64,000 nucleotides of DNA from contig DATLZD010000021.1 in NCBI GenBank assembly GCA_035574155.1, forward strand, positions 72,608 to 136,607, in the 5' to 3' direction. Positions within the stretch are counted from its first letter, which is position 1. Each line of letters begins with the position of its first letter. Source of the stretch: Dehalococcoidia bacterium. GTDB lineage: Bacteria > Chloroflexota > Dehalococcoidia > SM23-28-2 > HRBIN24. Position numbers and translations under genes: made by a program. Below, one piece after another: positions 4,487 through 59,436 of this stretch. Under the pieces are notes generated by a model, which was not told the DNA's origin, ran no database searches, and worked only from the letters and a program-made list of their open reading frames with translations.

Positions 4487-5952
4487 TAGCCCACGGTGCC
4501 CTCGAGGCTCACCCGCAGCAGCTGTGAGACCTCCATGGCGAACTCGAAGGGCAGCTCCTGGAAGACCCCGCGGCAGAAGCCGTGCACGATCATGTACTGG
4601 GCCTCCTCCTCGCTGATGCCGCGGCTCATCAGGTAGAAGAGCTGCTCGTCGGAGATCTTGGAGGTGGTGGCCTCGTGCTCGATGCGGGCGGTGGGGTTGC
4701 GCACCTCGAGATAGGGGACCGTGTGGGCGGCGCACCTGCTGCCGATGAGCAGCGAATCGCAGCGGGTGAAGTTGCGGGCACCGTCGGCGGTGGGCATGAT
4801 CTTCACCAGGCCACGGTAGGTGTTCTGGCCGTGGCCCGCCGAGATGCCCTTGGCCACAATGGTGCTGCGTGTGTTCTTGCCGATGTGGATCATCTTGGTG
4901 CCGGTATCGGCCTGCTGGTAGTTGTTGACCAGGGCCACCGAGTAGAACTCGCCCACCGAGTTGTCGCCCCGCAGGATTACGCTGGGGTACTTCCACGTGA
5001 TGGCCGAGCCCGTCTCCACCTGGGTCCACGAGATCTTGGAGTTCCTGCCCAGGCAGATGCCCCGCTTGGTCACGAAGTTGTAGACGCCGCCGTGCCCCTC
5101 CTTGTCGCCCGGGTACCAGTTCTGGAGGGTGGAATACTTGATCTCGGCGTCCTCCAGGGCGATGAGCTCCACCACGGCAGCGTGGAGCTGGTGCTTCTTG
5201 CGGATGGGCGCCGTGCACCCCTCCAGGTAGCTGACATAGGAGCCACGGTCGGCGATGATGAGGGTCCGCTCGAACTGCCCCGCCTCGGCCTCGTTAATGC
5301 GGAAGTAGGTCATCAGGTCCATGGGGCAACGCACACCCGGCGGGACGTAGACGAAAGTCCCATCGGAGAAGACGGCCGAGTTGAGGGCGGCGTAGAAGTT
5401 GTCGGTGTAGGGCACCACCGAGCCCAGGTACTTGCGCACCAGCTCAGGGTGCTTCTGGATGGCCTCGGAGATGGGACAGAAGATGATGCCCAGCTCCTCC
5501 AGCTTCTTCTGGAAGGTGGTGGCCACCGACACCGAGTCCAGCACGGCGTCTACCGCCACCCCCGCCAGCCGCTTCTGCTCCTCCAGGGGGATGCCCAACT
5601 TGTCGAAGGCCCGCTTCAGCTCAGGGTCGATGTCGTCCAGGGTCTTGGGCCGGTCGCCGTCTCGGGAGAGGGGCGCCGCGTAGTACACGATGTCCTGGAA
5701 GTCGATGGGCGGGTGGTAGATCTTGGCCCACTTGGGCTCCACGTAGTCCAGGGACCGCCAGTAGCGGTAGGCCCGCAACCGCCATTCCAGCATCCACTCG
5801 GGCTCTTCCTTCTTGCGGGAGATCAGCCGGATGATGTCCTCGCTGAGGCCCTTGGGGGCCACGTCGGCGGGCACCGGGATGACGAACCCCCACTTGTACT
5901 CCTTCTCCTCGATGCCCGTCTCGCGGGATATGACCTTGCGCGCTGGCGGCAT
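4486..5952 (-). CDS. sufB: Fe-S cluster assembly scaffold SufB
   Basis: 488 aa from [19 protein letters not shown]...; start chosen at ATG 5952, which has the strong SD GAGGAGG 6 nt upstream. Confidence 0.9.
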
Positions 5953-5994
5953 ATGCAGGCCTCCTCGGGGCCAAGGGGCAGGCATTTTGGCAAC

Positions 5995-6010
5995 ATTTGA
6001 CTGTCCAAAT
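5995..6010. promoter_or_regulatory. AT-rich inverted repeat ATTTG-N6-CAAAT in the sufB 5' region; candidate operator
   Basis: Read directly in the sequence about 45 nt upstream of the sufB start; unusually AT-rich for this genome. Confidence 0.25.
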
Positions 6011-6083
6011 CTCCCTTAGCCCAGCACAAGTGTAGCACAGGCCCAATGGGGGCGCAAGGGGTGCAGCGGAGCCCCAGGCCCCG

Positions 6084-6112
6084 TTGACGGTGGAGACGGC
6101 AGGTGGTAGAGT
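6084..6112 (+). promoter_or_regulatory. Sigma-70-like promoter TTGACG-17-TAGAGT driving the T-box leader
   Basis: Hexamers with a 17-nt spacer, placed just upstream of the predicted Stem I. Confidence 0.4.
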
Positions 6113-6114
6113 TT

Positions 6115-6420
6115 TGAGCACAAGCGCATATCGGAAAGGCTGCGAACGGGGATAGTAGCCCGCAGGGCAGGGCCCAGAGAGCCGGGGGAAGGTGCGAGCC
6201 CGGTGCTACTGCGGCGGGTGAATGGGCCCGGGAGCTGCCTGCCCAACGGGGCGCCCAGGCGCCCCTAGTAGGCCAGGACGGAGGGGCACCGTTATCGGCC
6301 CAGGGCGCGGAGTCCGGCATGCTCGGCCGCGCCCGTAACGAGTGCCCGCCCCAGCGGCGGGAACTAGGGTGGCACCGCGGGAGGCCCCTCGCCCCTAGAG
6401 GCGAGGGGCCTTGCAGTTGT
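6115..6420 (+). promoter_or_regulatory. T-box riboswitch leader, Trp-specific (UGG specifier), upstream of trpB2-trpS-trpE
   Basis: Canonical T-box sequence AACTAGGGTGGCACCGCGG at ~6362-6380 (UGGC pairs with NCCA, discriminator G); perfect 10-bp terminator hairpin GGCCCCTCGC/GCGAGGGGCC at 6383-6410 followed by UUGCAGUUGU; AG-box-like CAGAGAG at ~6175; AGTAGC/GCTACT helix; candidate specifier gaaTGGg at ~6223. Confidence 0.55.
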
Positions 6421-6441: not shown

Positions 6442-7800
6442 ATGGACCGCTACAAGTTCATACTGGACGAGAAGGACCTGCCCACCCACTGGTATAACGT
6501 CATCGCCGATATGGGGCCGCCGCCACCGCCCCTCGACCCGCGCAGCGGCCAGCCGGTTCCGCCGGAGGCCCTGGCACCCCTGTTCCCCAAGGCCCTCATC
6601 GCCCAGGAGGTCTCGGCCGAGCGCTGGGTCGCCATCCCGGACGAGGTGCGGGACGTCTACAGGCTGTGGCGCCCGACGCCCCTCTACCGGGCCAAGCGGC
6701 TGGAGCAGGCCCTGGGCACGCCTGCCCGCATCTACTACAAGTATGAGGGCGTCTCGCCCGCCGGCTCCCACAAGCCCAACACGGCGGTGGCCCAGGCCTA
6801 TTACAACAAGGCCGAGGGCGTCCGCCGTCTGACCACCGAGACCGGCGCCGGCCAATGGGGCTCGGCCCTGGCCATGGCCTGCGCCTTCTTCGGCCTGGAG
6901 CTGAAGGTCTACATGGTCAAGGTCTCCTACCACCAGAAGCCCTACCGCCGGGTCCTGATGGAGACCTGGGGCGCGCAGGTGGTCCCGAGTCCCAGCCCCG
7001 ATACCCAGGCCGGCCGCCAAGTGCTGGAACGCGACCCCGAGTCGCCCGGCTCCCTCGGCATCGCCATCTCCGAGGCGGTGGAGGACGCTGCCACTCGGGA
7101 CGACACCAAGTACTCCCTGGGGTCCGTCCTCAACCATGTGCTCCTGCACCAGACGGTGATGGGCCTCGAGGCGATGCGCCAGATGGAGATGGCCGGCGAC
7201 TACCCCGATGTGGTCATCGGCTGCGTGGGCGGCGGCTCCAACTACGGCGGCCTCTGCCTGCCCTTCGTGGGGGAGCGGCTCCGCTCGGGCCGGAAGACGC
7301 GCTTCGTGGCCGTGGAGCCCGAGGCATGCCCCTCCCTCACTCGGGGGCAGTACACCTACGACTTCGGCGACACGGCCGAGACGACGCCCCTGCTGAAGAT
7401 GCACACGCTGGGGCACAGCTTTATACCGCCCTCCATCCACGCTGGCGGCCTGCGCTACCACGGCATGGCCCCCATCATCTCCAAGCTGGTAGCCGACGGC
7501 GTCATGGAGGCGCGGGCCTACCACCAGACGAGGGTCTTCGAGGCAGCCGTCCAGTTCGCCAGGGCCGAGGGGATCGTCCCGGCACCCGAGTCGGCGCACG
7601 CCATCCGCGCCGCCATCGATGAGGCCCTGGCCGCCCGGGAGGCAGGGGAGCGGAGGGTCATCCTGTTCAACCTTTCGGGCCATGGACTGCTGGACTTGGG
7701 GGCCTATGACCAGTTCCTGTCGGGCAAACTGGAGGACTACGCCTACCCCGAAGAGAGGGTGAGGGAGGCCCTGGCCGGCCTCCCCCGGGTAGGCCAGTAG
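6442..7800 (+). CDS. trpB: Tryptophan synthase beta-like protein, TrpB2 clade
   Basis: 452 aa from [19 protein letters not shown] (a typical TrpB2 N-terminus); PLP-fold motifs GSHKPN and GGGSN; SD GGAGGAAGG upstream. Confidence 0.85.
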
Positions 7801-7813
7801 TCGGCGCCAGGAG

Positions 7814-8917
7814 GTGGCGAGCGTGAGTGGTGAGAGGACGGCGCTGCAGGAGGCGGGGCTCCCGCCGCCTCCCCGCCTGTGGGAGATGAACCTGGACCTG
7901 GAGGTGAAGCCCACCTGGCGGAGAATGCTCACCGGCGACCGGCCCACCGGCCCCCTGCACCTGGGCCACTACGTGGGGTCCCTGCGCTACCGCCTGGCCC
8001 TCCAGGACAAGATAGAGTGCTTCATCATCATCGCCGACCTGCATGTCCTCACCACCCGCACCGAAAGGCTGCAGGAGCTCGAGGCCAACGTCCGGGAGGT
8101 GGTGCTGGACTACTTGGCGGTGGGTATCGACCCCCAGAAGACCACCATCTACCTCCAGTCGCTGGTGCCGGAAGTGCTGGAGATCATGTGGCTGTTCATG
8201 AGCCTGGTGAGCGTGCCCCGTGCCCAGCGGATCCCCACCCTTAAGCAGGCGGTGCGCGACCTTCAGTTGGAGTCGGCATCGGTGGCCCTCCTTTCTTACC
8301 CCATCCTCCAGGCGGCGGACATCCTGATGGTGAAGGGTGACGTGGTGCCGGTGAGCAAGGACAACGCCTCCCACATCGAGCTGACCAGGGAGATAGCGCG
8401 GCGCTTCAACCGCCTCTATCGCCCTATCTTCCCGGAGCCGGACTCGCCCATCGGCCCCCTGCTGGTGGGCTTGGACGGGCAGAAGAAGGCGTCCAAGTCC
8501 CTGGGCAACGTCATCCTGCTGTGCGACGACGCGGACACGGTGCGGCGCAAGGTGCGCAGCATGTTCACGGACCCGCGGCGCATCCGCGCCGACATCCCCG
8601 GCCGCACCCGCGGCAACCCTGTCTTCATCTACCACGACTTCTTCAACGACGACCGGGCGGAGGTCGAGGACCTGAAGCAGCGCTACCGCCGTGGCAAGGT
8701 GGGGGACGTGGAGGTCAAGGAGAAGCTGACCAGGGCCATCAACCGCTTCCTGGACCCCATCCGCGAGCGACGGGCCTACTTCGCGGCCCGCCCCAGGCTC
8801 ATCGAGGAGATCGTCCACGAGGGGTCGCGGCGGGCGCGGGCCGAGGCCCAGCAGACGCTACGGGAGATGCGGGAGGCCATGGGCCTGACCCACTTCCGCC
8901 AGGAGGGGGCACCCTGA
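7814..8917 (+). CDS. trpS: Tryptophanyl-tRNA synthetase
   Basis: HIGH-type motif TGDRPTGPLHLGHYVGSL and KMSKS-type KASKSLG; GTG start at 7814 or 7823 after AGGAGG. Confidence 0.85.
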   Translation: MASVSGERTALQEAGLPPPPRLWEMNLDLEVKPTWRRMLTGDRPTGPLHLGHYVGSLRYRLALQDKIECFIIIADLHVLTTRTERLQELEANVREVVLDYLAVGIDPQKTTIYLQSLVPEVLEIMWLFMSLVSVPRAQRIPTLKQAVRDLQLESASVALLSYPILQAADILMVKGDVVPVSKDNASHIELTREIARRFNRLYRPIFPEPDSPIGPLLVGLDGQKKASKSLGNVILLCDDADTVRRKVRSMFTDPRRIRADIPGRTRGNPVFIYHDFFNDDRAEVEDLKQRYRRGKVGDVEVKEKLTRAINRFLDPIRERRAYFAARPRLIEEIVHEGSRRARAEAQQTLREMREAMGLTHFRQEGAP

Positions 8918-8943: not shown

Positions 8944-10419
8944 GTGGAGGCGCTGGCCCGGGAGGGCAGGGGTAACTTGTGCCCCGTCCTGCGGGAGGTG
9001 CCCGCTGACCTGGAGACGCCCGTCTCGGCCTTCCTCAAGGTGGCCCGGGGCGCCTATTCCTTCCTCCTGGAGTCGGTGGAGGGCGGCGAGCGGCTGGCCC
9101 GCTACAGCTTCATCGGCACCGAGCCCTATCGGGTGCTGCGCCAGGGCCCCTATGCCCACCCCTGGGACGGGTCTGACCCGCTGCGGGAGGTGGAGTCGGA
9201 GCTGTCCCGCTTCCGCCTGGCCCTGCCGTCGGAGGGGCCGGCGCCGGCCCTGCCCAGCTTCACCGGCGGCGCCGTGGGTTACCTGGCCTGGGAGTGCGTG
9301 CGCCATTTCGAGCCGCGGGTGCCCATCCGCCATGAGGACCCGCTGGGAGTCCCCGAGGCCCTGTTCCTGTTCGTGGACACGCTGCTGGTGTTCGACCACC
9401 TGCGCCACGTGGTGAAGGTGGTGTCCCATTGCCGGCTGGACGGGGAGGTGGCAGCCAGCTACCGGCAGGCCTGCTGGCGAATAGAGGAGCTGGTAGCGAG
9501 GCTGTCGCGCCCGCTGCCCTCCCAGCCCTACGCCGTGCGCAGGGGGGCCGCCCCGACCGGCACCGCCTCCAACGTGGACCGGGAGGCCTTCCTGTCCATG
9601 GTGGAGCAGGCCCGGAGATACATCGTCGCGGGCGATGTCATCCAAGTGGTGCTGTCCCAGAGGCTGTCGCGGCCCACCGCCGCCCACCCCTTCTCCATCT
9701 ACCGCGCGCTGCGGGCCGTGAACCCATCGCCCTACATGTATTACCTGCACCTGGGCGACTTCCAGGTCATAGGGGCCTCGCCGGAGATGCTCGTGCGGGT
9801 GGAGGGCGGGGAAGTGGTGACCCACCCTATCGCCGGCACCCGGCGCCGCGGTCGGACGCCCGAGGAGGACGCTGCCCTGGAGGAGGAGCTGCGGGCCGAC
9901 GAAAAGGAGCGGGCCGAGCACCTGATGCTGGTGGACCTGGCCCGCAACGACATCGGGCGGGTGGCCCTGCCCGGAACGGTGCGGGTGCCCCAGTTCATGG
10001 AGGTGGAGCGCTACTCCCACGTGATGCACCTGGTCTCCCACGTGACAGGCCGGCTTCGTCCCGACCTGACCTGCTACGATGCCCTGCGTGCCTGCTTCCC
10101 AGCCGGCACCGTCTCCGGGGCGCCCAAGATAAGGGCCATGGAGATCATCGCCGAACTGGAGCCTGACCGGCGCGGGCCTTACGCTGGAGCCGTGGGTTAC
10201 TTCGACTATTCGGGCAACATGGACACGGCCATAACCATCCGCACCGTGGTGCTGAAGGACGGCGTCGCGTCCGTGCAGGCGGGGGCCGGCATCGTCTATG
10301 ACTCGGTGCCGGAGCGGGAGTACGAGGAGACCCTGAACAAGGCGGCCGCCCTGCTGACAGCCATCGAACGGGCCGAGGCAGCGGAGGAGGCGATGGTCAC
10401 CGGCAGCCTGGGGTACTGA
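8944..10419 (+). CDS. trpE: Anthranilate synthase component I (TrpE)
   Basis: Chorismate-binding family motifs (LLESVEGGE...; [13 protein letters not shown]); start uncertain: GTG 8944 or CTG 8914 (the latter has GGAGG 7 nt upstream); must begin after the trpS stop. Confidence 0.8.
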
Positions 10420-10435
10420 AGCGGAGGACAGCACG

Positions 10436-11641
10436 TTGAGCGATCTCCTGTCGTTGGTGCCGGAGCCGCTGCGCAACCTGCTGCGTCACCGGTTGCGAAC
10501 GGGCCTGACGGTTATGGGCATCACCATCGGCATCTTTGCCCTGGTGGTCCTGGGGGCGTTGGCGGAGAAGGTGAACCAGTTGGTCGAGGGCGGCGAGGAA
10601 TACCTGTCCAACCGCATAGCCATAACCGATAAAGGGGGAGGGCACCCGTTTTTCGGGGGGTTCGGTCTGGTGCCGGTGTCCTTCGCCGAGAACGTGCGCC
10701 AGGTGCCAGGTGTGGCCTGCGTGGAGACCAGCATCAACCTGCTGCTGGACCCCGAGGGCGGTGCCAGCGTGGGCATGCCCCAGATCATTTCAGGGGTGGT
10801 GGTGGACGAGATCCAGCAGTGCGACCGGGAAGCCCCTTCCCCGGTGGAGTTGAGCTTCGCCCGAGGCGACTGGTGGCGCCAAGGCGAACGGGGCGTAACG
10901 GTGCTCGGGGCCGATGTGGCCGAGCGGCTCAAGGCACGCGTGGGGCAGACCGTGACCCTGCGCGACCACCCCTTCCGGGTGGTAGGCGTCCTGGACCGCA
11001 CCCTCACCGGCCCCGATAACATCGCCTACGTGCCCTTGGACGACGCCCGTGAGCTGCTGAGGGAGTCGCGCCTCTTCTTCTCGGAGATAGACCTATCGGA
11101 CAAGGTGGACACCATCTTCGCCTCGGTCCAGCCCGGCGTGGACGGCGACCGTCTGGCCCGCGATATCGAGGCCCGTTACCCCGACATCCGTGCCTTCGGC
11201 CCCACCGAGCTGAAGGAACCGCTGCAGACCAGCAACATGGTGTTCCAGTTCATCATCCTCGGCGTCGCCATGATCGCCCTCATCGTGGGAGGCCTCTCGG
11301 TCATCAACACCATGGTCATGTCGGTGGCCGAACGGGTCCGCGAGATAGGGATCAAGAAGGCGGTGGGGGCAAGCGATGGCGACATCCTGCGGGAGTACCT
11401 GGCCGAGGCGGTGGCCATCGGCGCCCTGGGCGGCCTGCTGGGGCTGTTGGCCGGCTCCCTGGCGGTCATGGTCCTGAACGACTTCGCCCGCGAGGCGGCC
11501 GGAGGCCCCGTCTTCCTGGTGACGGGACGGCTGGCAGCCGGCTCGGTGGCCTTCGCCGCCTTCCTCGGCGCCGTGGCCGGCCTGCTGCCCGCCTTCCGGG
11601 CGGCGCGGCTGCGGCCGGTGGAGGCCCTGCGGTCCGAGTGA
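10436..11641 (+). CDS. ABC transporter permease, FtsX/MacB-like (MacB periplasmic core + C-terminal 4-TM FtsX domain)
   Basis: N-terminal TM, large extracytoplasmic domain and C-terminal FtsX-type TM bundle; TTG start with GGAGG 8 nt upstream. Confidence 0.75.
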   Translation: MSDLLSLVPEPLRNLLRHRLRTGLTVMGITIGIFALVVLGALAEKVNQLVEGGEEYLSNRIAITDKGGGHPFFGGFGLVPVSFAENVRQVPGVACVETSINLLLDPEGGASVGMPQIISGVVVDEIQQCDREAPSPVELSFARGDWWRQGERGVTVLGADVAERLKARVGQTVTLRDHPFRVVGVLDRTLTGPDNIAYVPLDDARELLRESRLFFSEIDLSDKVDTIFASVQPGVDGDRLARDIEARYPDIRAFGPTELKEPLQTSNMVFQFIILGVAMIALIVGGLSVINTMVMSVAERVREIGIKKAVGASDGDILREYLAEAVAIGALGGLLGLLAGSLAVMVLNDFAREAAGGPVFLVTGRLAAGSVAFAAFLGAVAGLLPAFRAARLRPVEALRSE

Positions 11642-11656
11642 GGAGGTAAGAGTCCC

Positions 11657-12388
11657 GTGGCACAGGAAAGGGTAGCCGGCCAACTGCTCCAGGCGGAGCA
11701 GGCCATCATCGAGGCGCGGGGCCTGGTCAAGACCTACCGCCTAGGAGGCGGCGTGGTGCGGGCGTTGGACCATGTGGACCTGACGGTGGAACGGGGCGAA
11801 CTGATGGCGGTCATGGGACGCTCGGGCTCCGGCAAGACCACCCTGCTGAACGTCCTGGGAGGCCTGGACCGCCCCGATGAGGGGCAGGTGGTCATCGACG
11901 GCGTGGACATCGCCCGCCTTAATGGGCGCCAACTGCCACGGCTGCGCCGCGAGAAGGTGGGCTTCGTCTTCCAGGAGTTCAACCTGATCCCCACCCTGAC
12001 GGCCCTGGAGAATGTTGAGCTGCCCCTTCGCTACGCTGGGGTGCCCAGGGCAGAGCGACGGCGGAGGGCCATGGAGGCCCTGGCCCTGGTCGGCATGGAC
12101 CACCGCGCACGTCACCGGCCGTCCCAGCTATCGGGGGGAGAGCAGCAGCGGGTGGCCCTCGCGCGGGCGCTGGTCAGTCGACCGGCCATCGTCCTGGCGG
12201 ACGAGCCCACGGGGGAGCTGGACACTCACACAGCGGCGCAGGTGATGGAGCTGGTCCAGCGCCTGAACCGGGAGACGGGCCAGACCTTCATCATCGTTAC
12301 CCACGACCCGGCCATCGCCCAACGCTGTCGTCGGGTGGTGCGCATGGAGGACGGACGCATCGTCAGCGACCAACGCCAAGGAGAGTGA
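11657..12388 (+). CDS. ABC transporter ATP-binding protein (MacB/LolD-type)
   Basis: Walker [10 protein letters not shown], signature LSGGEQQR, Walker [13 protein letters not shown]; GTG start 10 nt after AGGAGG. Confidence 0.85.
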
Positions 12389-12397
12389 CGGTCCGGG

Positions 12398-12406
12398 TGC
12401 TATAAT
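12398..12406 (+). promoter_or_regulatory. Extended -10 promoter TGcTATAAT in front of the toxin-antitoxin pair
   Basis: Perfect TGnTATAAT read in sequence; the predicted TSS is ~4 nt before ATG 12417, implying a leaderless antitoxin mRNA. Confidence 0.35.
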
Positions 12407-12416
12407 GGGGCCAGCC

Positions 12417-12662
12417 ATGACCAGGGAACGCTTACATCGTCTCATAGATCGAGCCTCCGAGGAGGACTTGGCCATTGTTGAGCACCTCCTCCTTCACCTG
12501 TTGGCCTGTCGCGATCCGGTCTTGCGCAGCCTGATCCGTGCCCAAGCCGAGGAGGAGGGCCTGACACAAGCGGATGAGACGGCCGTCGAAGGGGGACTTC
12601 GGGACGTCCGCGAAGGACGGACGCGACCCACGGCCGAGGTTCGCCGCCTCCTCGGACTGTGA
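12417..12662 (+). CDS. Putative type II antitoxin (small acidic protein, family not assigned)
   Basis: 81-aa acidic protein whose stop overlaps the RelE/ParE start by GTGA; ATG 12405 is an alternative start. Confidence 0.5.
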   Translation: MTRERLHRLIDRASEEDLAIVEHLLLHLLACRDPVLRSLIRAQAEEEGLTQADETAVEGGLRDVREGRTRPTAEVRRLLGL

Positions 12663-12919
12663 GCTGGCAAGTAGAGTGGAGCGAGCGGGCGATAACCGAC
12701 CTGCGTTGGCTGCCCGCGCGGGACGCCAAAAGGGTCATCGAGGCAGTGGAACGATACGCCCAGTCGGGTCACGGCGACATACGTAAGATCCGGGGCAGGG
12801 ACGCGCTGTTCCGGTTACGTATTGGGACTTGGAGAGTCCTGTTCACCCCCGACGTCGACTCTCGACGCATCTACGTGCTCACGGTCAGGCACCGTAGGGA
12901 GGCCTACCGGGACATGTGA
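12659..12919 (+). CDS. RelE/ParE-family type II toxin
   Basis: 86 aa with the typical RelE/ParE pattern; GTG start overlapping the antitoxin stop. Confidence 0.7.
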   Translation: MSWQVEWSERAITDLRWLPARDAKRVIEAVERYAQSGHGDIRKIRGRDALFRLRIGTWRVLFTPDVDSRRIYVLTVRHRREAYRDM

Positions 12920-12946
12920 GGTCGCGAAGGCTAGAGGTGGTGAACG

Positions 12947-13513
12947 TTGGTCCTGCTAATCGATAACTACGACAGTTTCACCTACAACCTCTACCAGCTC
13001 CTGTCGGAGCTGGGCGCAGAGGTGTTGGTGGTGCGCAACGACCGCACGACCGTCGACGACGTCGAGGCCATGCGTCCTCAGGGCATCGTCATCTCCCCCG
13101 GCCCCTGCACGCCGCGAGAGGCAGGCATATCGGTGGAGCTGGTGCGACGGCTGGCCGGCAGGGTGCCCATCCTTGGGGTCTGCCTCGGTCACCAGTGCAT
13201 TGGCGAGGCCTTCGGTGGGCGAGTGGTGGGTGCCGGCGAGATCGTCCACGGCAAGACGTCCCTCGTCCACCATACGGGCCAGGGCGTCCTGCGGGGCCTG
13301 CCCGACCCCTTCCCGGCCGTCCGCTACCACTCGTTGGTGGTGGAGCGGGACTCGCTGCCGGAAGAGCTGGAGGTGACGGCCTGGACGGACAAAGGCCTGG
13401 TCATGGGGCTGCGCCACCGCCGCCTGCCGGTGGAGGGGGTCCAGTTCCACCCCGAGTCCATCGCCACCCCGGTGGGCAAGCAGATACTGCGGAACTTCCT
13501 GGGGTCGCTATGA
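12947..13513 (+). CDS. trpG: Anthranilate synthase component II (glutamine amidotransferase TrpG/PabA)
   Basis: LLIDNYDSFTYNL start and GATase triad context GVCLGHQ; TTG start after AGAGGTGG. Confidence 0.85.
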   Translation: MVLLIDNYDSFTYNLYQLLSELGAEVLVVRNDRTTVDDVEAMRPQGIVISPGPCTPREAGISVELVRRLAGRVPILGVCLGHQCIGEAFGGRVVGAGEIVHGKTSLVHHTGQGVLRGLPDPFPAVRYHSLVVERDSLPEELEVTAWTDKGLVMGLRHRRLPVEGVQFHPESIATPVGKQILRNFLGSL

Positions 13514-14541
13514 TCCGCGAGGCCATCGCTGCCCTGGTCAACGAGGGCCGCCACCTGTCAGAGGAGGAGGCGGCCGCCGTCATGACAGAGGTGATGGAGG
13601 GGCAGGCCACCCCCGCCCAGCTGGCCGCCCTCCTGGTGGCCCTACGCCTGCGAGACGAGACGGTGGACGAGCTGGTGGGCATGGCCCGCGTCATGCGCCG
13701 CTTCGCCCTGCGCGTCCCCCTGGAGCCTCCCCTCCTGGACACTTGCGGGACCGGCGGCGACGGCCGCGGCACGTTCAACGCCTCCACGGCGGCAGCCATC
13801 GTGGCGGCGGCGGCCGGGGCGCGGGTGGCCAAGCACGGCAACCGTGCCGCCTCCTCCCGCTGCGGCTCCGCCGACCTGCTGGAAGCCCTGGGCGCCCGCA
13901 TCGAGCTAGGACCGGAGCAAGTGGCCCGCTGCGTGCAGGAGGTGGGCATGGGCTTCATGTTCGCCCCCTCCTTCCATCCGGCCATGAGGCACGCAGCCGC
14001 CCCCCGGCGGGAGATCGGCCTGCGCACCGTCTTCAACCTTCTGGGCCCCCTCACCAACCCGGCCGGGGCCAGCCACCAACTGCTGGGGGTCCCAGACGCC
14101 GCCGTCGGCGAGAAGATGGCCCAGGCCCTTCTCCGCCTCGGCGTCCGCCGGGCGCTGGTGGTCCACGGCAGCGACGGTCTGGACGAGGTCAGCCCCTCGG
14201 CACCGACCCTTGTCTGGGAGGTGGCGGGGGGAGACGTGCGCCACTACCAGGTGGCCCCCGAGGACGCCGGCCTGGCGCCGGTGCCCTTGACGGCCGTTTG
14301 CTCCAGCGACCCCCAGGAGAACGCGGACCTGCTGCGGGCGGTGCTCTCGGGCCAGCGGCTCCCCCTGCGCAACTTCGTGCTCCTCAACGCCGGCGCCGCC
14401 CTGATGGCCGCCGAGATGGTCGGGAGCTTGAGGGAGGGCGTGGCCCTCGCCGCCGAGGCCATCGATAGCGGCGCCGCAGCCCGTAAGCTGGAAGAGTTCG
14501 TTGCCGCCACCCAGGGCCTGGCCGAGGCGGTGTCCCCATGA
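13510..14541 (+). CDS. trpD: Anthranilate phosphoribosyltransferase
   Basis: Motif GTGGDG and TrpD-family features; ATGA overlap with the trpG stop. Confidence 0.9.
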   Translation: MIREAIAALVNEGRHLSEEEAAAVMTEVMEGQATPAQLAALLVALRLRDETVDELVGMARVMRRFALRVPLEPPLLDTCGTGGDGRGTFNASTAAAIVAAAAGARVAKHGNRAASSRCGSADLLEALGARIELGPEQVARCVQEVGMGFMFAPSFHPAMRHAAAPRREIGLRTVFNLLGPLTNPAGASHQLLGVPDAAVGEKMAQALLRLGVRRALVVHGSDGLDEVSPSAPTLVWEVAGGDVRHYQVAPEDAGLAPVPLTAVCSSDPQENADLLRAVLSGQRLPLRNFVLLNAGAALMAAEMVGSLREGVALAAEAIDSGAAARKLEEFVAATQGLAEAVSP

Positions 14542-15332
14542 GCGCCCCCTCCATCCTGGACGAGATCGTGGCCCACAAGCGGCAGGAGGTGGCCGCCGCC
14601 AAGGAGCGGCTTCCCTGGCGCGAGCTCGAGCGCCGGCTGGCACAGGTGCCTCCCCTCCGGCCCTTCGCCGCCGCCCTGCGGGGGCCGGGGCTGGCCCTCA
14701 TCGCCGAGGTGAAGGCCAGGAGCCCCTCCCGCGGCCTGCTGCGTCCGGACCTGGACCCGGCGGCCCTGGCCACGACCTACGCCCGCGCCGGCGCCGCGGC
14801 CATCTCCGTGCTCACCGACGAGAAGTATTTCGGCGGCTCCCTGGACCACCTGCGCCAGGTTCGCGAGGCCCTGCCCGATGGTCCGCCCCTGCTGCGCAAG
14901 GACTTCGTCATCGACCCATACCAGGTCTTGGAGGCGCGGGCGGCTGGCGCCGATGCCGTCCTCCTCATCGCGGCCGCCCTGGAGCACAAGGAGCTCGAAA
15001 GGCTGCTAGCGACAGCGCGGGACCTGGGCATGGACGCCCTGGTGGAGGTCCACGACGAGGCCGAGCTAGAGGCAGCCCTGGCAGCCGGTGCCGACCTGGT
15101 GGGCATCAACAACCGGGACCTGCGGACCTTCCGGGTGGACCTGGAGACCACCGTCCGCCTGCGCCCCCTGGTCCCGCCGGGCGTGACGGTGGTGGCCGAG
15201 TCGGGCATCCACACGCGGCAGGACGCTGCCCGCCTGGCCGCGCTGGGCGTGGACGCCATCCTGGTGGGGGAGGCGCTGGTGACGGCCCCGGACCCAGCCC
15301 TGAAGGTGCAGGAGCTGTCCTGCCCGGACTGA
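14538..15332 (+). CDS. trpC: Indole-3-glycerol phosphate synthase
   Basis: IGPS TIM-barrel motifs (LIAEVKARSPS, GINNRDL); ATGA overlap with trpD. Confidence 0.9.
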   Translation: MSAPSILDEIVAHKRQEVAAAKERLPWRELERRLAQVPPLRPFAAALRGPGLALIAEVKARSPSRGLLRPDLDPAALATTYARAGAAAISVLTDEKYFGGSLDHLRQVREALPDGPPLLRKDFVIDPYQVLEARAAGADAVLLIAAALEHKELERLLATARDLGMDALVEVHDEAELEAALAAGADLVGINNRDLRTFRVDLETTVRLRPLVPPGVTVVAESGIHTRQDAARLAALGVDAILVGEALVTAPDPALKVQELSCPD

Positions 15333-15369
15333 CCATGGGCCGCTGTGACCAGGGCAGCGCCGCCGGTGT

Positions 15370-16104
15370 ATGATGGGCCTGCCTGAGGTGGAGGCGGTGG
15401 GCGCTGGCCCCTGTCTGGTCAAGATCTGCGGGGTGACGGAGCCCCAGCATGCGCGGGCGGCGGCCGCCCTGGGCGCCGACTTCGTGGGCGTCGTCTTCGC
15501 CCCCAGCCGTCGGCAGGTGACCCTGGGCCAGGCCCAGAAGATAGCCATCGCCCTGGGCAAGCTGGACAGGCCCCCGGAGCCCCTGAGCGCCCCTGTCAGC
15601 ACCGTCGACATTGAGCGGCTGTTGGCCCGCTCGCGCCCCCTGCTGGTGGGAGTCTTTGCCGACCAGGACAGCGACACCATCAACGCCATCGCCGACCAGT
15701 GCCGCCTGGACATCGTGCAGCTTTCGGGGTCAGAGCCATGGCAGGTGTGCTTCCAGGTCCGGCGGCCCGTTTTCAAGTGCCTCAAGGTGAGGCCAGGACA
15801 GACGGCGGACGAGGTGCTGGCGGGCATCGGTCAGGGGGCAGTGCCGCTGCTGGACCCCTATGTGCCGGGCGCCTACGGCGGCACGGGCCAGATGCTGGAC
15901 TGGACGGTAGCTGCGGCCGTGGCGCGAGAGGTGCCCATCATCCTGGCAGGGGGACTGACCCCCGACAACGTGGCCGAGGCGGTCCGGAAGGTCCGCCCCT
16001 GGGCGGTGGACGTGTCCAGCGGCGTGGAGACGGAAGGGGTGAAGGACCTGGACAAGGTGCGGGCCTTCATCCTGGCGGCCAAGGCAGCCCTCACCACCCC
16101 GTGA
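15370..16104 (+). CDS. trpF: Phosphoribosylanthranilate isomerase
   Basis: VKICGVT at the N-terminus is typical of PRAI; the start may be a downstream GTG. Confidence 0.8.
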   Translation: MMGLPEVEAVGAGPCLVKICGVTEPQHARAAAALGADFVGVVFAPSRRQVTLGQAQKIAIALGKLDRPPEPLSAPVSTVDIERLLARSRPLLVGVFADQDSDTINAIADQCRLDIVQLSGSEPWQVCFQVRRPVFKCLKVRPGQTADEVLAGIGQGAVPLLDPYVPGAYGGTGQMLDWTVAAAVAREVPIILAGGLTPDNVAEAVRKVRPWAVDVSSGVETEGVKDLDKVRAFILAAKAALTTP

Positions 16105-16451
16105 GGGAGCCAGTACGGCCCCCCGGCCGGCCGCTCGCCTTGGCCCTGCCTGGGACCACCGTCCCAGCTCTCTTTCCCGCCGCCGTGGCCGTTGCTATCA
16201 TAGGCAGGAGGCGCTAGCTGCCGGGGGTCACTTGTTGAAGGTGAGCGAGGTAGGCGAGGGGCACCGCCGCCCCCATCTCTCCTATCTGCACACGGCCGTA
16301 GCCTGTCTTGGGCGGCGTGCCGCCGGCGCCTCCATGCGGCGGGGCCCGCCGGTAGCCCGGACGGTGGGCTTAAGGCCCACCGCAGCATGGGCCGTATGCT
16401 GCCTGCAAGGGCCGTCCCTGTCCCTCCTCCCCCCGACATGCTGGGTGGGCC
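16105..16451 (+). other. 347-nt non-coding spacer between trpF and trpB with tandem hairpins and a C-rich tract; putative internal leader/attenuator
   Basis: No credible ORF; hairpins GGTGGGC-ttaag-GCCCACC and GCAGCAT-gggccgt-ATGCTGC, then tccctcctcccccc complementary to G-rich SD-like sequences. Confidence 0.3.
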
Positions 16452-17657
16452 ATGTCCAGCCCTAGCAACGGCCTACCCGACGCTGCCGGTCGCTTCGGTC
16501 CCTTCGGCGGGCGCTACGTCCCTGAGACCCTCATGGCCCCCCTCCAAGAGCTGGAGGAGGCCTACCTGGCCGCCCGCGACGACCCCGCCTTTCAGTCCGA
16601 GCTGGACGCCCTGCTGCGGGACTACGCCGGGCGGCCCACGCCCCTCTACTTCGCCCGCCGCCTCACGGAGCGCATCGGCGGTGCCAAGATATATCTCAAG
16701 CGCGAGGACCTGGCCCACACCGGCGCCCACAAGATCAACAACGCTCTGGGCCAAGGGCTGTTGGCCAAGCGCCTGGGAAAGAGACGCATCGTGGCCGAGA
16801 CGGGGGCGGGGCAGCATGGAGTGGCCACCGCCACCGTCTGCGCCCTCCTGGGACTGGAGTGCGTGGTCTACATGGGCGCCGAGGACGTGCGCCGCCAGTC
16901 CCCCAACGTCTTCCGCATGCGGCTGCTGGGGGCCGAGGTGCGGGCCGTAGAGTCGGGCACCCGCACCCTCAAGGACGCCATCAACGAGGCCCTGCGCGAC
17001 TGGGTGACCAACGTCCGCACCACCCACTACCTGTTGGGCAGCGCCGTCGGCCCACACCCCTATCCCATGCTGGTGCGCGACTTCCAGTCGGTCATCGGCC
17101 GCGAGGCGCGGGAGCAGATGCTGGCCCGGGAGGGACGCCTGCCCGATTACGCTGTGGCCTGCGTGGGAGGGGGCTCCAACGCCATCGGCCTGTTTTACCC
17201 CTTCTATGGGGACCGGCAGGTCCAGTTGGTAGGCGTGGAAGCAGCGGGCCGCGGCGTCGAGACGGGCCAGCATGCCGCCAGCCTGGTGGCCGGTCGCCCG
17301 GGCGTCCTGCACGGCGCCTACTCCTACCTGCTGCAGGACGAGCACGGACAGGTCCTGGGGACCCACTCCATCTCCGCTGGCCTCGACTATCCGGGGGTCG
17401 GACCGGAACATGCCTACCTCAAGGAGACGGGGCGTGCCCGCTACGTGGCCGTGGGCGACGACGGGGCGTTGGAAGGCTTTCGGCTCCTGGCCGAGACGGA
17501 GGGGATCCTGCCAGCACTGGAGCCTGCGCACGCCGTCCACTACGCGGCCCAGCTGGCATCCCAGCTGCCCCCGGAGGCCATCGTGCTGGTCTGCCTCTCG
17601 GGGCGCGGCGACAAGGACCTGGGGGTAGTCGCCCAGGCCCTAGGCGTGCATATCTAG
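16452..17657 (+). CDS. trpB: Tryptophan synthase beta chain (TrpB1)
   Basis: Full-length TrpB with HTGAHKINN and GGGSNAIG motifs. Confidence 0.9.
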
Positions 17658-38730: not shown

Positions 38731-39537
38731 TCAGGCCTCGTCCTGGCCCCGACGGCCGGCCAGCACCTCCACATACTCCTTCACCCGCTCTTCCCGCTCA
38801 TGGGGAGGGGCCCCGTCCAGGCACTGGACTATGGCGCTCCCGACCACGACGGCCTCCGCCCAAGGGCGGAGGGACTCGACGTGTTTACGCTTAGATATAC
38901 CAAATCCTACCGCCAAAGGCAACCGGCTGCGGGCCCGCACCCTCTGCAGCAGCCCCGGCAGATCGGCAGGCAGCTCCTCCCGTGCCCCCGTCACCCCGGT
39001 GACGCTAACGCAGTAGATGAAGCCGCTGGCCTCACGGCCGATGCGCTCCAGGCGGGCATCGGAGGTGGTGGGCGCCACCAGCGGCACCAGGTCCAGCCCC
39101 ACCCGTCGGCAGGCCGCCAGCAGCTGCCCCGCCTCCTCCCACGGTAGGTCCACCACGATAAGACCGTCGACGCCGGCCGCTGCCGCATCGGCGGCGAACC
39201 GATCCAGGCCGTAGGCCAGCACCGGGTTGCAATAGGTCATGAGCACCAGAGGGGCCGCCACTCCCCGTCGCCGCAGGGCGGCCACCGTCTCCAGGCAGCT
39301 ACGGGGGGTGACCCCTCGCTCCAGGGCCACCTGCGTGGCCCGCTGAATGGTGGCACCGTCGGCCAAAGGGTCCGAGAAGGGGACGCCCAGCTCCACCATG
39401 TGGGCGCCACCAGCCAGCAGGGCGGGCACGAGCTGCAAGGTGGCCTCCACGTCGGGATAGCCCACCGGCAGGTAGGCGATGAGGCCCATCTCGCCCCGCC
39501 GCCGCAGTGCCTCGAAGCAGGTCGCGATGCGGCCCAC
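38731..39537 (-). CDS. trpA: Tryptophan synthase alpha chain
   Basis: Full-length TrpA TIM barrel (MVELGVPFSDPLADG...). Confidence 0.9.
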   Translation of the reverse strand: MGRIATCFEALRRRGEMGLIAYLPVGYPDVEATLQLVPALLAGGAHMVELGVPFSDPLADGATIQRATQVALERGVTPRSCLETVAALRRRGVAAPLVLMTYCNPVLAYGLDRFAADAAAAGVDGLIVVDLPWEEAGQLLAACRRVGLDLVPLVAPTTSDARLERIGREASGFIYCVSVTGVTGAREELPADLPGLLQRVRARSRLPLAVGFGISKRKHVESLRPWAEAVVVGSAIVQCLDGAPPHEREERVKEYVEVLAGRRGQDEA

Positions 39538-59339: not shown

Positions 59340-59436
59340 GGGAGTGGCAGGGGCCCGGTGGCCCTCCCGGTCTTCAAAACCGTGGCGGGGCGGCGTGCCC
59401 GTCCCGGGTGGGTTCGACTCCCATACACTCCCGCCA
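59340..59436 (+). tRNA. selC: tRNA-Sec (selC), anticodon UCA
   Basis: ~97 nt with encoded CCA; anticodon loop cTTCAaa; 8-bp acceptor GGGAGTGG/ACACTCCC (one mismatch); 6-bp D-stem GGGGCC/GGCCCT with a 4-nt loop; long variable arm; T-loop GGTTCGACTCC. Confidence 0.7.

Follow-up and report, generated by a model that had tools for sequence, protein, structure and literature searches.

How did an ATP-binding cassette (ABC) transporter and a toxin-antitoxin (TA) pair come to stand inside a tryptophan operon? This question is raised by a 64-kb stretch of DNA from a Dehalococcoidia bacterium (contig DATLZD010000021.1; the window), in which trpE and trpG are kept apart by genes for a MacB/FtsX-type permease, an ABC ATPase and an overlapping antitoxin-toxin pair. 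This arrangement had been described in an earlier prediction made from the sequence alone (the original prediction). Pfam and gene-order checks confirmed both the separation of trpE from trpG and the gene identities that it had proposed. It had also suggested that exporter and TA pair may be a recent insertion. Our analysis points to another answer. The locus probably combines two modules of different age, namely a conserved ABC pair and a later, self-promoted TA cassette of the RelBE type, in an operon headed by a tryptophan-specific T-box. The full order reads trpB2-trpS-trpE-[permease-ATPase]-[antitoxin-toxin]-trpG-trpD-trpC-trpF-(PIN-cassette remnant)-trpB. In homology searches, close relatives of the window genes were found in Chloroflexota of the class Dehalococcoidia. 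Coordinates refer to the + strand of the window unless stated otherwise.

Conserved Position of the ABC Pair between trpE and trpG

We compared the genomic contexts of seven permease orthologues (P0001, P0002, P0003, P0004, P0006, P0009 and P0016, with BLASTP identities to the window protein of 94, 89, 88, 67, 64, 64 and 57%, respectively), using loci L081-L084 and L087-L092. Permease and ATPase genes sit between trpE and trpG in all seven contexts. Wherever the upstream sequence was covered, the order is trpB2-trpS-trpE-permease-ATPase-trpG-trpD-trpC-trpF-(trpB). By global alignment, the permeases of L081, L084, L087, L089, L090 and L092 are 94, 89, 88, 64, 63 and 58% identical to that of the window, and TrpE identity over the ABC-bearing loci runs from 94% down to 73%. 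The arrangement therefore predates a substantial radiation.

Shine-Dalgarno sequences and reading frames of the ABC pair are intact in every locus. The GC content at third codon positions (GC3) is 0.89 for the permease and 0.84 for the ATPase, next to 0.88-0.93 for the trp genes. At loci without the TA pair, the ATPase stop codon lies at or within the start of trpG, with an ATGA overlap in L081, a 4-nt overlap in L090, a 17-nt overlap in L089 and a 3-nt spacer in L087. From the overlap of the two genes, which is present in L081-83, L089 and L090/91, we infer translational coupling in the TA-less relatives. These relatives carry trpE-permease-ATPase-trpG, and not trpE followed directly by trpG. 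Recent insertion is therefore not borne out for the ABC exporter, given its position in seven of seven orthologues, its native codon usage and its apparent coupling to trpG. The comparisons show the pair to be an inherited, conserved operon member in one lineage of Dehalococcoidia-class Chloroflexota.

Beyond this orthologous group, the association with tryptophan genes disappears. Permease paralogues at 47-48% identity (L093 and L094, one from a Limnochordaceae metagenome-assembled genome and one from another contig) have unrelated neighbours. Among 80 more distant permease homologues from metagenomes, none adjoins a trp operon; one of these loci (L107) has a 39%-identical TrpE-like match about 2 kb away. 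The metagenome scan used generic FtsX motifs and returned almost only homologues of 25-45% identity, and it serves as a negative control. An exact-sequence look-up of the window permease gave no match. The trp linkage thus appears to be specific to this permease orthologous group.

Several ABC-bearing trp operons contain further genes at other junctions. In L088, a PAS/HisKA_3 sensor kinase gene stands between trpC and trpF (5028-6248), and in L092 two Polyketide_cyc2/SRPBCC genes follow trpF (13619-14523). An open reading frame (ORF) of 58 codons without family match lies just 5' of trpC in L081 (13989-14162) and L087 (7592-7768), with 53% identity between L081-83 and L087. It is missing in the window and in L084, where trpD and trpC overlap.

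Insertion and Distribution of the TA Cassette

The TA pair behaves differently. Junction alignment delimits a 558-bp cassette that is a clean insertion starting directly after the ATPase stop codon and reaching up to the trpG start. The cassette is present in the window, its duplicate L095, L084, L085 and L096, and it is missing from L081-83, L087, L089 and L090. Since the window, L081, L084 and L087 stand at similar distances from one another (roughly 81-96% identity per protein), the cassette is variable among close relatives. Its genes have the lowest GC3 values of the operon (antitoxin 0.68, toxin 0.77; others 0.84-0.93). Between the window and L084, the antitoxins are 72% and the toxins 69% identical, against 81-94% for the neighbouring genes. 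All copies found of this TA pair occupy the same junction between ATPase gene and trpG, and word-indexed searches with antitoxin and toxin returned almost only copies in this context.

These alignments show a TA cassette that was inserted exactly at the junction of ATPase stop and trpG start in part of the lineage, and the TA pair is best read as a later insert, separable from the ABC pair. The notion of a recent insertion thus holds for the TA pair, which is missing in L081-83 and L087, has atypical GC3 and has exact boundaries, and fails for the ABC pair. The comparison of GC and codon usage across the region gave the same division, with low GC3 in the TA genes and native values in the ABC genes. 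The original prediction had named a conserved order with orthologous genes in relatives as the finding that would speak against an insertion. This order was found for the transporter and not for the TA pair, which varies among relatives.

Near the two cassette edges (12380-12390 and 12930-12945) we noted similar short strings, GGAGAGTGAC and GGTGGTGAAC, which resemble the sequence from ATPase stop to trpG Shine-Dalgarno in the TA-less locus L087 (GAGGAGTGAAAGGTG). They may be a short target-site duplication and are too short to judge. An integron gene cassette was considered and, on inspection of the sequence, rejected: the toxin stop codon and trpG are only 27 nt apart, these nucleotides contain the trpG Shine-Dalgarno sequence, and an attC site (about 57-141 bp) would not fit. 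In L085 (1-7833), permease, ATPase, antitoxin, toxin and trpG are nearly identical to those of L084. In place of trpD, this locus continues 3' of trpG with genes for a metallo-beta-lactamase-fold protein, a Ser/Thr kinase and a hydrolase; either the operon was rearranged here or the contig is a chimera of the assembly.

A Putative Remnant of a Second TA Cassette

A second pair of TA-like genes occurs intact between trpF and trpB in L084, L087 and L096. It encodes a 128-aa protein with weak helix-turn-helix (HTH) matches and a 147-aa PIN-domain protein. The corresponding 347-bp gap of the window aligns with both ends of this HTH-PIN cassette, by nucleotide alignment and by tblastn. The first end of the remnant corresponds to the 5' region of the cassette, with an extended -10-like element (TGCTATCAT, 16193-16201) and a degenerate antitoxin gene start. 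At its other end, the remnant corresponds to the last ~70 nt of the PIN gene, and these contain the trpB start codon. Another remnant, consisting of the last 45 codons of the PIN gene, is present in L081-83. The gap between trpF and trpB therefore reads as a deletion remnant of an HTH-PIN TA cassette, and the operon would hold one intact and one decayed TA cassette. Elsewhere in the 64-kb window, no pair of TA-like genes was seen in a rough gene map based on GC3. A terminator-like hairpin (16150-16167) takes the place of the palindrome-plus-TTGAC region of the intact cassettes.

Operon Layout and T-Box Leader

The features of the operon are collected in Table 1. GC content is high in this part of the window, at about 63-75% (500-bp windows, 5-20 kb). 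Between trpE and the permease gene lie 16 nt, between the permease and ATPase genes 15 nt, and between the ATPase stop and the conserved antitoxin ATG (12417) 28 nt; the antitoxin and toxin genes share 4 nt (GTGA), and 27 nt lead on to trpG. These values are close to the 13-27 nt that had been given for these co-directional genes.

Table 1. Features of the trp operon and its inserted modules in the 64-kb window
Feature	Position	Strand	Basis
Operon promoter-like site, sigma-70-like, TTGACG-17-TAGAGT with upstream TG	6084..6112	+	consensus match only
T-box leader with UGG (Trp) specifier and terminator hairpin	6133..6399	+	RF00230
trpB2 (TrpB-like PLP enzyme), first gene of the operon, ATG at 6442	6442..7800	+	PALP match
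trpS (tryptophanyl-tRNA synthetase, TrpRS)	7814..8917	+	tRNA-synt_1b, E 2.8e-73
trpE (anthranilate synthase component I)	8944..10419	+	GTG start at 8944 chosen by comparison with L081
MacB/FtsX-type ABC permease, 401 aa	10436..11641	+	Pfam, hydropathy, orthologue contexts
ABC ATPase, 243 aa, LolD/MacB-like nucleotide-binding domain	11657..12388	+	ABC_tran, model scores
Whole inserted TA cassette, 558 bp	12389..12946	+	junction alignment
Extended -10 element TGCTATAAT, putative cassette promoter	12398..12406	+	motif scan; comparison with L084
Antitoxin, 81 aa	12417..12662	+	ORF; start fixed by alignment with L084
RelE-type toxin, 86 aa, GTG start	12659..12919	+	PF05016, AlphaFold2/Foldseek
trpG, TTG start, own Shine-Dalgarno sequence GAGGTGGTGA at the 3' edge of the cassette	12947..13513	+	sequence reading
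trpD, trpC, trpF	13510..16104	+	gene calls
Predicted deletion remnant of second TA cassette (HTH antitoxin and PIN toxin), 347 bp	16105..16451	+	alignment, tblastn
trpB	16452..17657	+	gene calls

The T-box that had been proposed upstream of the operon is real, though it scores 73.4 bits (E 6.5e-15, RF00230) where the Rfam gathering score is 93. Its specifier can be read as GAA-UGG-G, which stands for Trp, and its terminator as a GC-rich hairpin (GGCCCCTCGCC...GGCGAGGGGCC). Orthologous T-box leaders were found upstream of trpB2 at the three loci scanned (L084, L089 and L092), and the leader of L089 passes the gathering score with 98.6 bits.

A TrpA-like ORF (N-terminus ...GLIAYLPVGYPD...) lies about 21 kb away on the - strand (38731-39537), and trpA is therefore outside this trp operon. 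In L090 and L091, several genes stand between trpA and trpB as well. At gathering score, the only Rfam matches of the window are a selenocysteine tRNA (RF01852, 74.9 bits) and one ordinary tRNA, listed as the pair 59340-59432 / 865-936.

The Transporter and Inserts in Other Chloroflexota trp Operons

We turned to the question as to what the conserved ABC pair may be. The permease matches the Pfam families MacB_PCD (PF12704, residues 22-246, E 1.2e-23) and FtsX (PF02687, residues 277-392, E 2.9e-16). Its hydropathy profile has a first transmembrane (TM) segment, a hydrophilic loop of ~215 aa and a hydrophobic block at the C-terminus, in keeping with the four TM segments of MacB. TM-like segments cover residues ~20-47 and 265-299 and overlapping windows at 321-390, where this crude scan does not cleanly separate TM3 from TM4. 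The permease has the build of an FtsX-type protein with four TM segments, in which a large extracytoplasmic domain (MacB_PCD) is placed between the first and the second. By sequence, the best solved relatives are MacB proteins, pneumococcal Spr0695, B. subtilis YtrF and LolE/LolF. The ATPase matches ABC_tran (E 5.9e-38), and the Walker A, signature and Walker B motifs expected of such a domain, LADEPT among them, are readable in its translation. Its best models are LolD, MacB, DarD, YbbA and FtsE, all under their equivalog cut-offs (LolD and MacB at 243-245 bits), which makes it a nucleotide-binding domain of the MacB/LolD/FtsE group. Neither transporter protein has an equivalog-level match in NCBIfam.

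Neither the operon nor any orthologous locus examined contains a gene for an HlyD-type membrane fusion protein or a TolC-like protein. A MacAB-TolC system proper is thus ruled out at these loci, and we therefore file the pair as MacB-like. The transporter is most simply classified as a stand-alone MacB-like (type VII) ABC system. The sole functional clue to it is co-regulation with tryptophan synthesis and TrpRS through a tRNA-Trp sensor; rtpA-ycbK of B. subtilis is a precedent for a transporter under amino-acid T-box control. Very tentatively, the transporter may be an exporter or extractor whose substrate has to do with tryptophan metabolism or with a lack of charged tRNA-Trp. Conceivable substrates are indole or anthranilate overflow, a tryptophan antimetabolite or an inhibitor of TrpRS.

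The alternative to any such role is best judged against the operons of other Chloroflexota. A wider survey covered 80 TrpE-anchored loci from a genome collection; all its counts hold among the matches listed, the best relative being 71% identical, and the ABC-bearing clade lies outside this set. In 22 of 42 Chloroflexota loci, a gap of at least 300 bp separates trpE from trpG, as against 2 of 30 in other phyla (Fisher p 3.6e-5, uncorrected for phylogeny). A glyoxalase/VOC gene fills it in 15 of the 22 gapped Chloroflexota loci, where it holds the position that is taken by the ABC pair in the lineage of the window. These are Dehalococcoidia loci L003, L010, L015, L018, L024-L028, L031, L032, L036-L038 and L051. 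The encoded protein is 146 aa long in 12 of them, 153 aa long in two others and 181 aa long in L025, and the L003 copy matches PF00903 with E 6e-18.

Other trp junctions contain unrelated cargo (genes for a methyltransferase, a short-chain dehydrogenase/reductase (SDR), a HAD protein, a CMD-domain protein and a sensor kinase) or parts of TA systems. The latter include a ParE-family toxin gene (E 2.7e-16) after a small unclassified ORF in L015 and L024, HicA in L015, DUF4258 with an MqsA-like zinc-ribbon protein in L025 and DUF433 in L003 (L015 12578-13817 and 14855-15109; L024 13151-13596; L025 14540-15072; L003 12566-12790). The arrangement in the window is therefore less unusual than the original prediction had it, since many Chloroflexota have non-trp genes, other TA modules included, between their trp genes. 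Enrichment of TA modules in trp operons is not established by the at least six apparently independent insertions in ~45 Chloroflexota operons (~450 kb). This count is not clearly above the usual density in TA-rich genomes. As the survey shows, inserted genes are tolerated unusually well in the trp operons of the class Dehalococcoidia.

These observations give weight to the view that the ABC pair is neutral or unrelated cargo at a permissive trpE-trpG junction, kept through translational coupling to trpG and without a role in tryptophan metabolism. The glyoxalase/VOC, methyltransferase, SDR, HAD and CMD genes at the same junction and the phylum-level difference in gap size fit this view, as does the fact that distant homologues of the transporter are not trp-linked. 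It has to contend with a position that was held down to 58% permease identity while other junctions of the same operons turned over, and with Shine-Dalgarno sequences and a reading frame that stayed intact in every locus. We regard passive retention as a serious, if somewhat improbable, alternative.

The Putative Promoter of the TA Cassette

The extended -10 element that had been noticed upstream of the TA pair belongs to the cassette, and it is kept in the diverged copy of L084. No other TGNTATAAT occurs in the 64-kb window; 0.05 would be expected by chance, and 5 of 100 shuffled sequences had one. From the -10 element to the antitoxin ATG (12396-12419), window and L084 agree at 23 of 24 positions (96%) with one 1-nt indel. 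The TA coding sequences of the two loci are 69-72% identical and the spacers on either side 33-47%. Constraint on a non-coding element would show this pattern. On the + strand of the operon there are only four TGNTANNNT motifs, which fall on the operon promoter, a site within trpE, the RelBE cassette and the PIN remnant.

The same alignment bears on where the antitoxin begins. A start at 12405, as first proposed, is not supported: the indel shifts this ATG out of frame in L084, and the start is therefore at 12417, which gives 81 aa. This ATG lies 10 nt past the -10 element in the window and 11 nt past it in L084, and no Shine-Dalgarno sequence was seen in between. A leaderless or very short-leader antitoxin transcript is therefore plausible; transcription from about 12413 would give a leader of ~4 nt. 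No terminator-like site was found from the toxin gene to trpG, so that read-through from the TA promoter into trpGDCF is plausible as well.

Such read-through raises the possibility that the cassette has been domesticated. Its promoter would then serve T-box-independent expression of trpGDCF(B), and T-box read-through during starvation would link RelE-type arrest to the charging of tRNA-Trp. E. coli RelBE is activated by amino-acid starvation. A conserved promoter element without a terminator before trpG would suit this role, and the remnant of the second cassette keeps its extended -10-like element at 16193 and supplies the start region of trpB. Against domestication, equally close relatives do without the cassette, which has foreign codon usage and changes faster than the genes around it, and the PIN cassette is decaying rather than conserved. 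Since this whole pattern is typical of selfish modules, we think domestication quite unlikely.

Identity of Toxin and Antitoxin

The pair has the bicistronic layout of type II TA systems, with the antitoxin gene first and a 4-nt GTGA overlap that is the same in L084 and L096. The predicted toxin is basic (pI 11.0) and the antitoxin acidic (pI 5.6). The toxin matches ParE_toxin (PF05016) with E 1.6e-8 and 35.4 bits, above the curated cut-off of 23. Its AlphaFold2 model (pLDDT 88.6, pTM 0.77) was compared with solved structures by Foldseek. The best matches are the RelE structures 1wmi, 2khe, 3bpq, 3g5o, 9g12 and 4fxe (E 1e-6 to 5e-5, TM 0.74-0.83), which represent RelE of P. horikoshii, T. thermophilus and M. 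jannaschii, RelE2 and RelE1 of M. tuberculosis and RelE of E. coli. ParE structures match at E of at least 4.7e-4 (5ceg), most others at 2e-3 or more. The C-terminal sequence VRHRREAYRD is invariant in three aligned toxins, and in a sequence alignment this motif falls on the HRxxxY terminus of RelE3 and Rv2866; its Arg and Tyr residues are candidate equivalents of R81/Y87 of E. coli. The toxin is thus predicted to have the RelE fold and is presumably a ribosome-dependent mRNA endonuclease.

The antitoxin is harder to place. Its model is all-helical, with high local confidence and a low pTM of 0.46, which we read as an extended, non-globular protein. Pfam gave no match even at E 5, the fold search no significant one, and NCBIfam has no model for either antitoxin or toxin. 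An exhaustive profile search defined a family of 80-90-aa proteins with 176 representatives (E <= 1e-3, 50%-identity cluster level). A profile built from 50 of its members matches RelB1 of M. tuberculosis in the C-terminal segment that binds the toxin (9g12_C, E 6e-4) and has a weak match to Rv2865. RelB1 and Rv2865 are the partners of two of the best structural matches of the toxin. The antitoxin belongs to a family without Pfam match, and the TA pair is probably a new member of the RelBE kind. The sole exact match of the antitoxin in the protein collection is from a Logan assembly. In the source GenBank record, the permease is HXG41576.1 and the toxin, byte-identical to the protein of the window, is HXG41578.1, which leaves one number for the ATPase. 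The 81-aa antitoxin therefore probably lacks annotation in that record.

Could the toxin be a ParE-type gyrase poison instead of a RelE-type mRNA endonuclease? The matching Pfam family bears the name ParE_toxin, though it covers both kinds, and the only fold match of the antitoxin, a non-significant one, is a ParD. The structures point the other way: all top matches are RelE, and ParE structures are more than 2 orders of magnitude worse in E-value. The best matches among Protein Data Bank (PDB) sequences are RelE3, Rv2866 and archaeal RelE, the C-terminal HRxxAY motif is conserved, and a 51% homologue was named "mRNA interferase RelE/StbE" by its sources. A gyrase poison is accordingly a rather remote prospect.

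Proposed Explanation

An arrival of ABC exporter and TA pair together, as one recent insertion or small mobile island at a canonical trpE-trpG junction, is extremely unlikely: the four genes are co-directional and tightly packed, and the closest genome-collection relatives among the matches listed (L001 and L002) have other genes at the junction, but the ABC pair occurs without the TA pair in L081-83, L087, L088, L089, L090/91 and L092, down to 58% permease identity, native GC3 is found in the ABC genes and not in the TA genes, and the inserted DNA begins behind the ATPase stop codon instead of ahead of the permease gene.

We favour two modules of different age, which would work as follows. 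Uncharged tRNA-Trp would antiterminate the T-box, and the ABC pair would be transcribed along with the trp genes. In TA-less relatives, the ATPase gene would be translationally coupled to trpG. In the window, the cassette would bring its own extended -10 promoter and yield a leaderless or near-leaderless antitoxin mRNA, and toxin translation would be coupled to that of the antitoxin via the GTGA overlap. The acidic helical antitoxin, with a C-terminal segment that resembles the toxin-binding end of RelB, would neutralise the RelE-fold toxin. No terminator follows, and the cassette promoter would therefore probably give trpGDCF some T-box-independent transcription. The cassette itself would persist as a selfish addiction module, outside the pathway. 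The decayed HTH-PIN cassette between trpF and trpB suggests that this operon gains and loses such inserts over time.

Several observations weigh against this explanation. The four closest genomes are ~90% identical to each other in a star-like pattern, and one ancestral gain with two precise losses, or a later gain that was spread by recombination, may both fit the distribution of the cassette. Unrelated genes (glyoxalase, methyltransferase, SDR, HAD and CMD) stand at the same junction in other Chloroflexota, and the ABC pair could therefore be retained cargo without a tryptophan role. We know of no MacB-type transporter with a tryptophan-related function. The T-box of the window falls short of the Rfam gathering threshold (73.4 vs 93 bits). 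Promoter conservation is based on two diverged lineages only, and there is no operator-like inverted repeat at the TA promoter of the window. Finally, Pfam and fold searches revealed no recognisable DNA-binding domain in the antitoxin.

The two modules may also be joined in a bolder idea, which we offer as unlikely in its entirety. In its first part, uncharged tRNA-Trp would induce MacB-type efflux of pathway overflow, of a TrpRS inhibitor or of an antimetabolite. A MacB-type exporter in a tRNA-Trp-sensing regulon would then represent T-box-controlled efflux of a kind so far undescribed. In its second part, trp junctions would be landing pads for TA cassettes, whose promoters and ends are co-opted as internal promoters and translation start regions of downstream trp genes. 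This second part draws on the trpB start inside a PIN-gene remnant that still bears an extended -10-like element.

Neither module is mechanistically strange. What the analysis achieves is to separate two modules that look like one island. By guilt by association, it provides a concrete and testable link between a transporter and tryptophan or tRNA-Trp charging, and it defines an antitoxin family without Pfam match. Variability of the TA pair among close relatives, a conserved promoter and a decayed sister cassette together make a TA-cassette life cycle visible. The locus is thus a clear natural example of how TA modules enter an essential biosynthetic operon, rewire it and decay within it.

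Comparison with Known Systems

Literature searches, which had subscription journals outside their coverage, turned up no earlier account of either module, ABC transporter or TA pair, within a trp operon of the Chloroflexota. The closest parallel to the TA cassette is the MNT-HEPN module in the lysine operon of Thermus thermophilus, which is present in strain HB8 and missing in HB27 (Makarova et al. 2009, PMC2701414). Both cases have a strain-variable TA cassette among the genes of an amino-acid operon, a sign of recent mobility. The window differs in TA family and operon, in having two cassette sites (one intact, one decayed), in a conserved cassette promoter and in a remnant of the second cassette from which the next gene takes its translation start region.

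As a TA module, the pair resembles archaeal RelBE (1wmi, 3bpq), RelBE1 (9g12) and RelBE2 (3g5o) of M. tuberculosis and RelBE of E. coli (4fxe). The small genes overlap with the antitoxin first, the basic toxin of ~86 aa has the predicted RelE fold with a C-terminal Arg/Tyr motif, the acidic antitoxin has a C-terminal segment like the toxin-binding end of RelB1, and the module has a putative promoter of its own. In contrast to these systems, the N-terminal two-thirds of the antitoxin match no Pfam family and no solved fold, and no ribbon-helix-helix, Phd/YefM, HTH or AbrB DNA-binding domain was seen in it. Its mRNA is probably leaderless, and every copy found occupies a single chromosomal niche, the junction between ATPase gene and trpG.

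The T-box setting has a precedent in Dehalococcoides, where trpE and a trpB-like gene are known to be preceded by T-boxes (PMC2494555). As there, the window has a T-box with Trp specifier 5' of trp genes in a member of the Chloroflexota. The T-box-linked transporters that we found discussed in that study are amino-acid uptake systems, whereas the transporter of the window is of the MacB exporter or mechanotransducer type and stands amid biosynthetic genes.

The transporter itself shares with MacB and other type VII systems (MacB 5gko, 5lil and 5nik; Spr0695 5xu1; YtrF 9o9x; LolCDE) the FtsX C-terminal domain, the MacB periplasmic core domain, the hydropathy profile and a separate LolD/MacB-like nucleotide-binding domain. 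Unlike them, it is encoded by two distinct genes with the permease gene preceding the ATPase gene, it has no membrane-fusion adaptor or outer-membrane partner nearby, and it lies inside a T-box(Trp) tryptophan operon with which it is co-regulated. What is new here is an operon-level variant, a MacB-type system embedded in a T-box trp operon.

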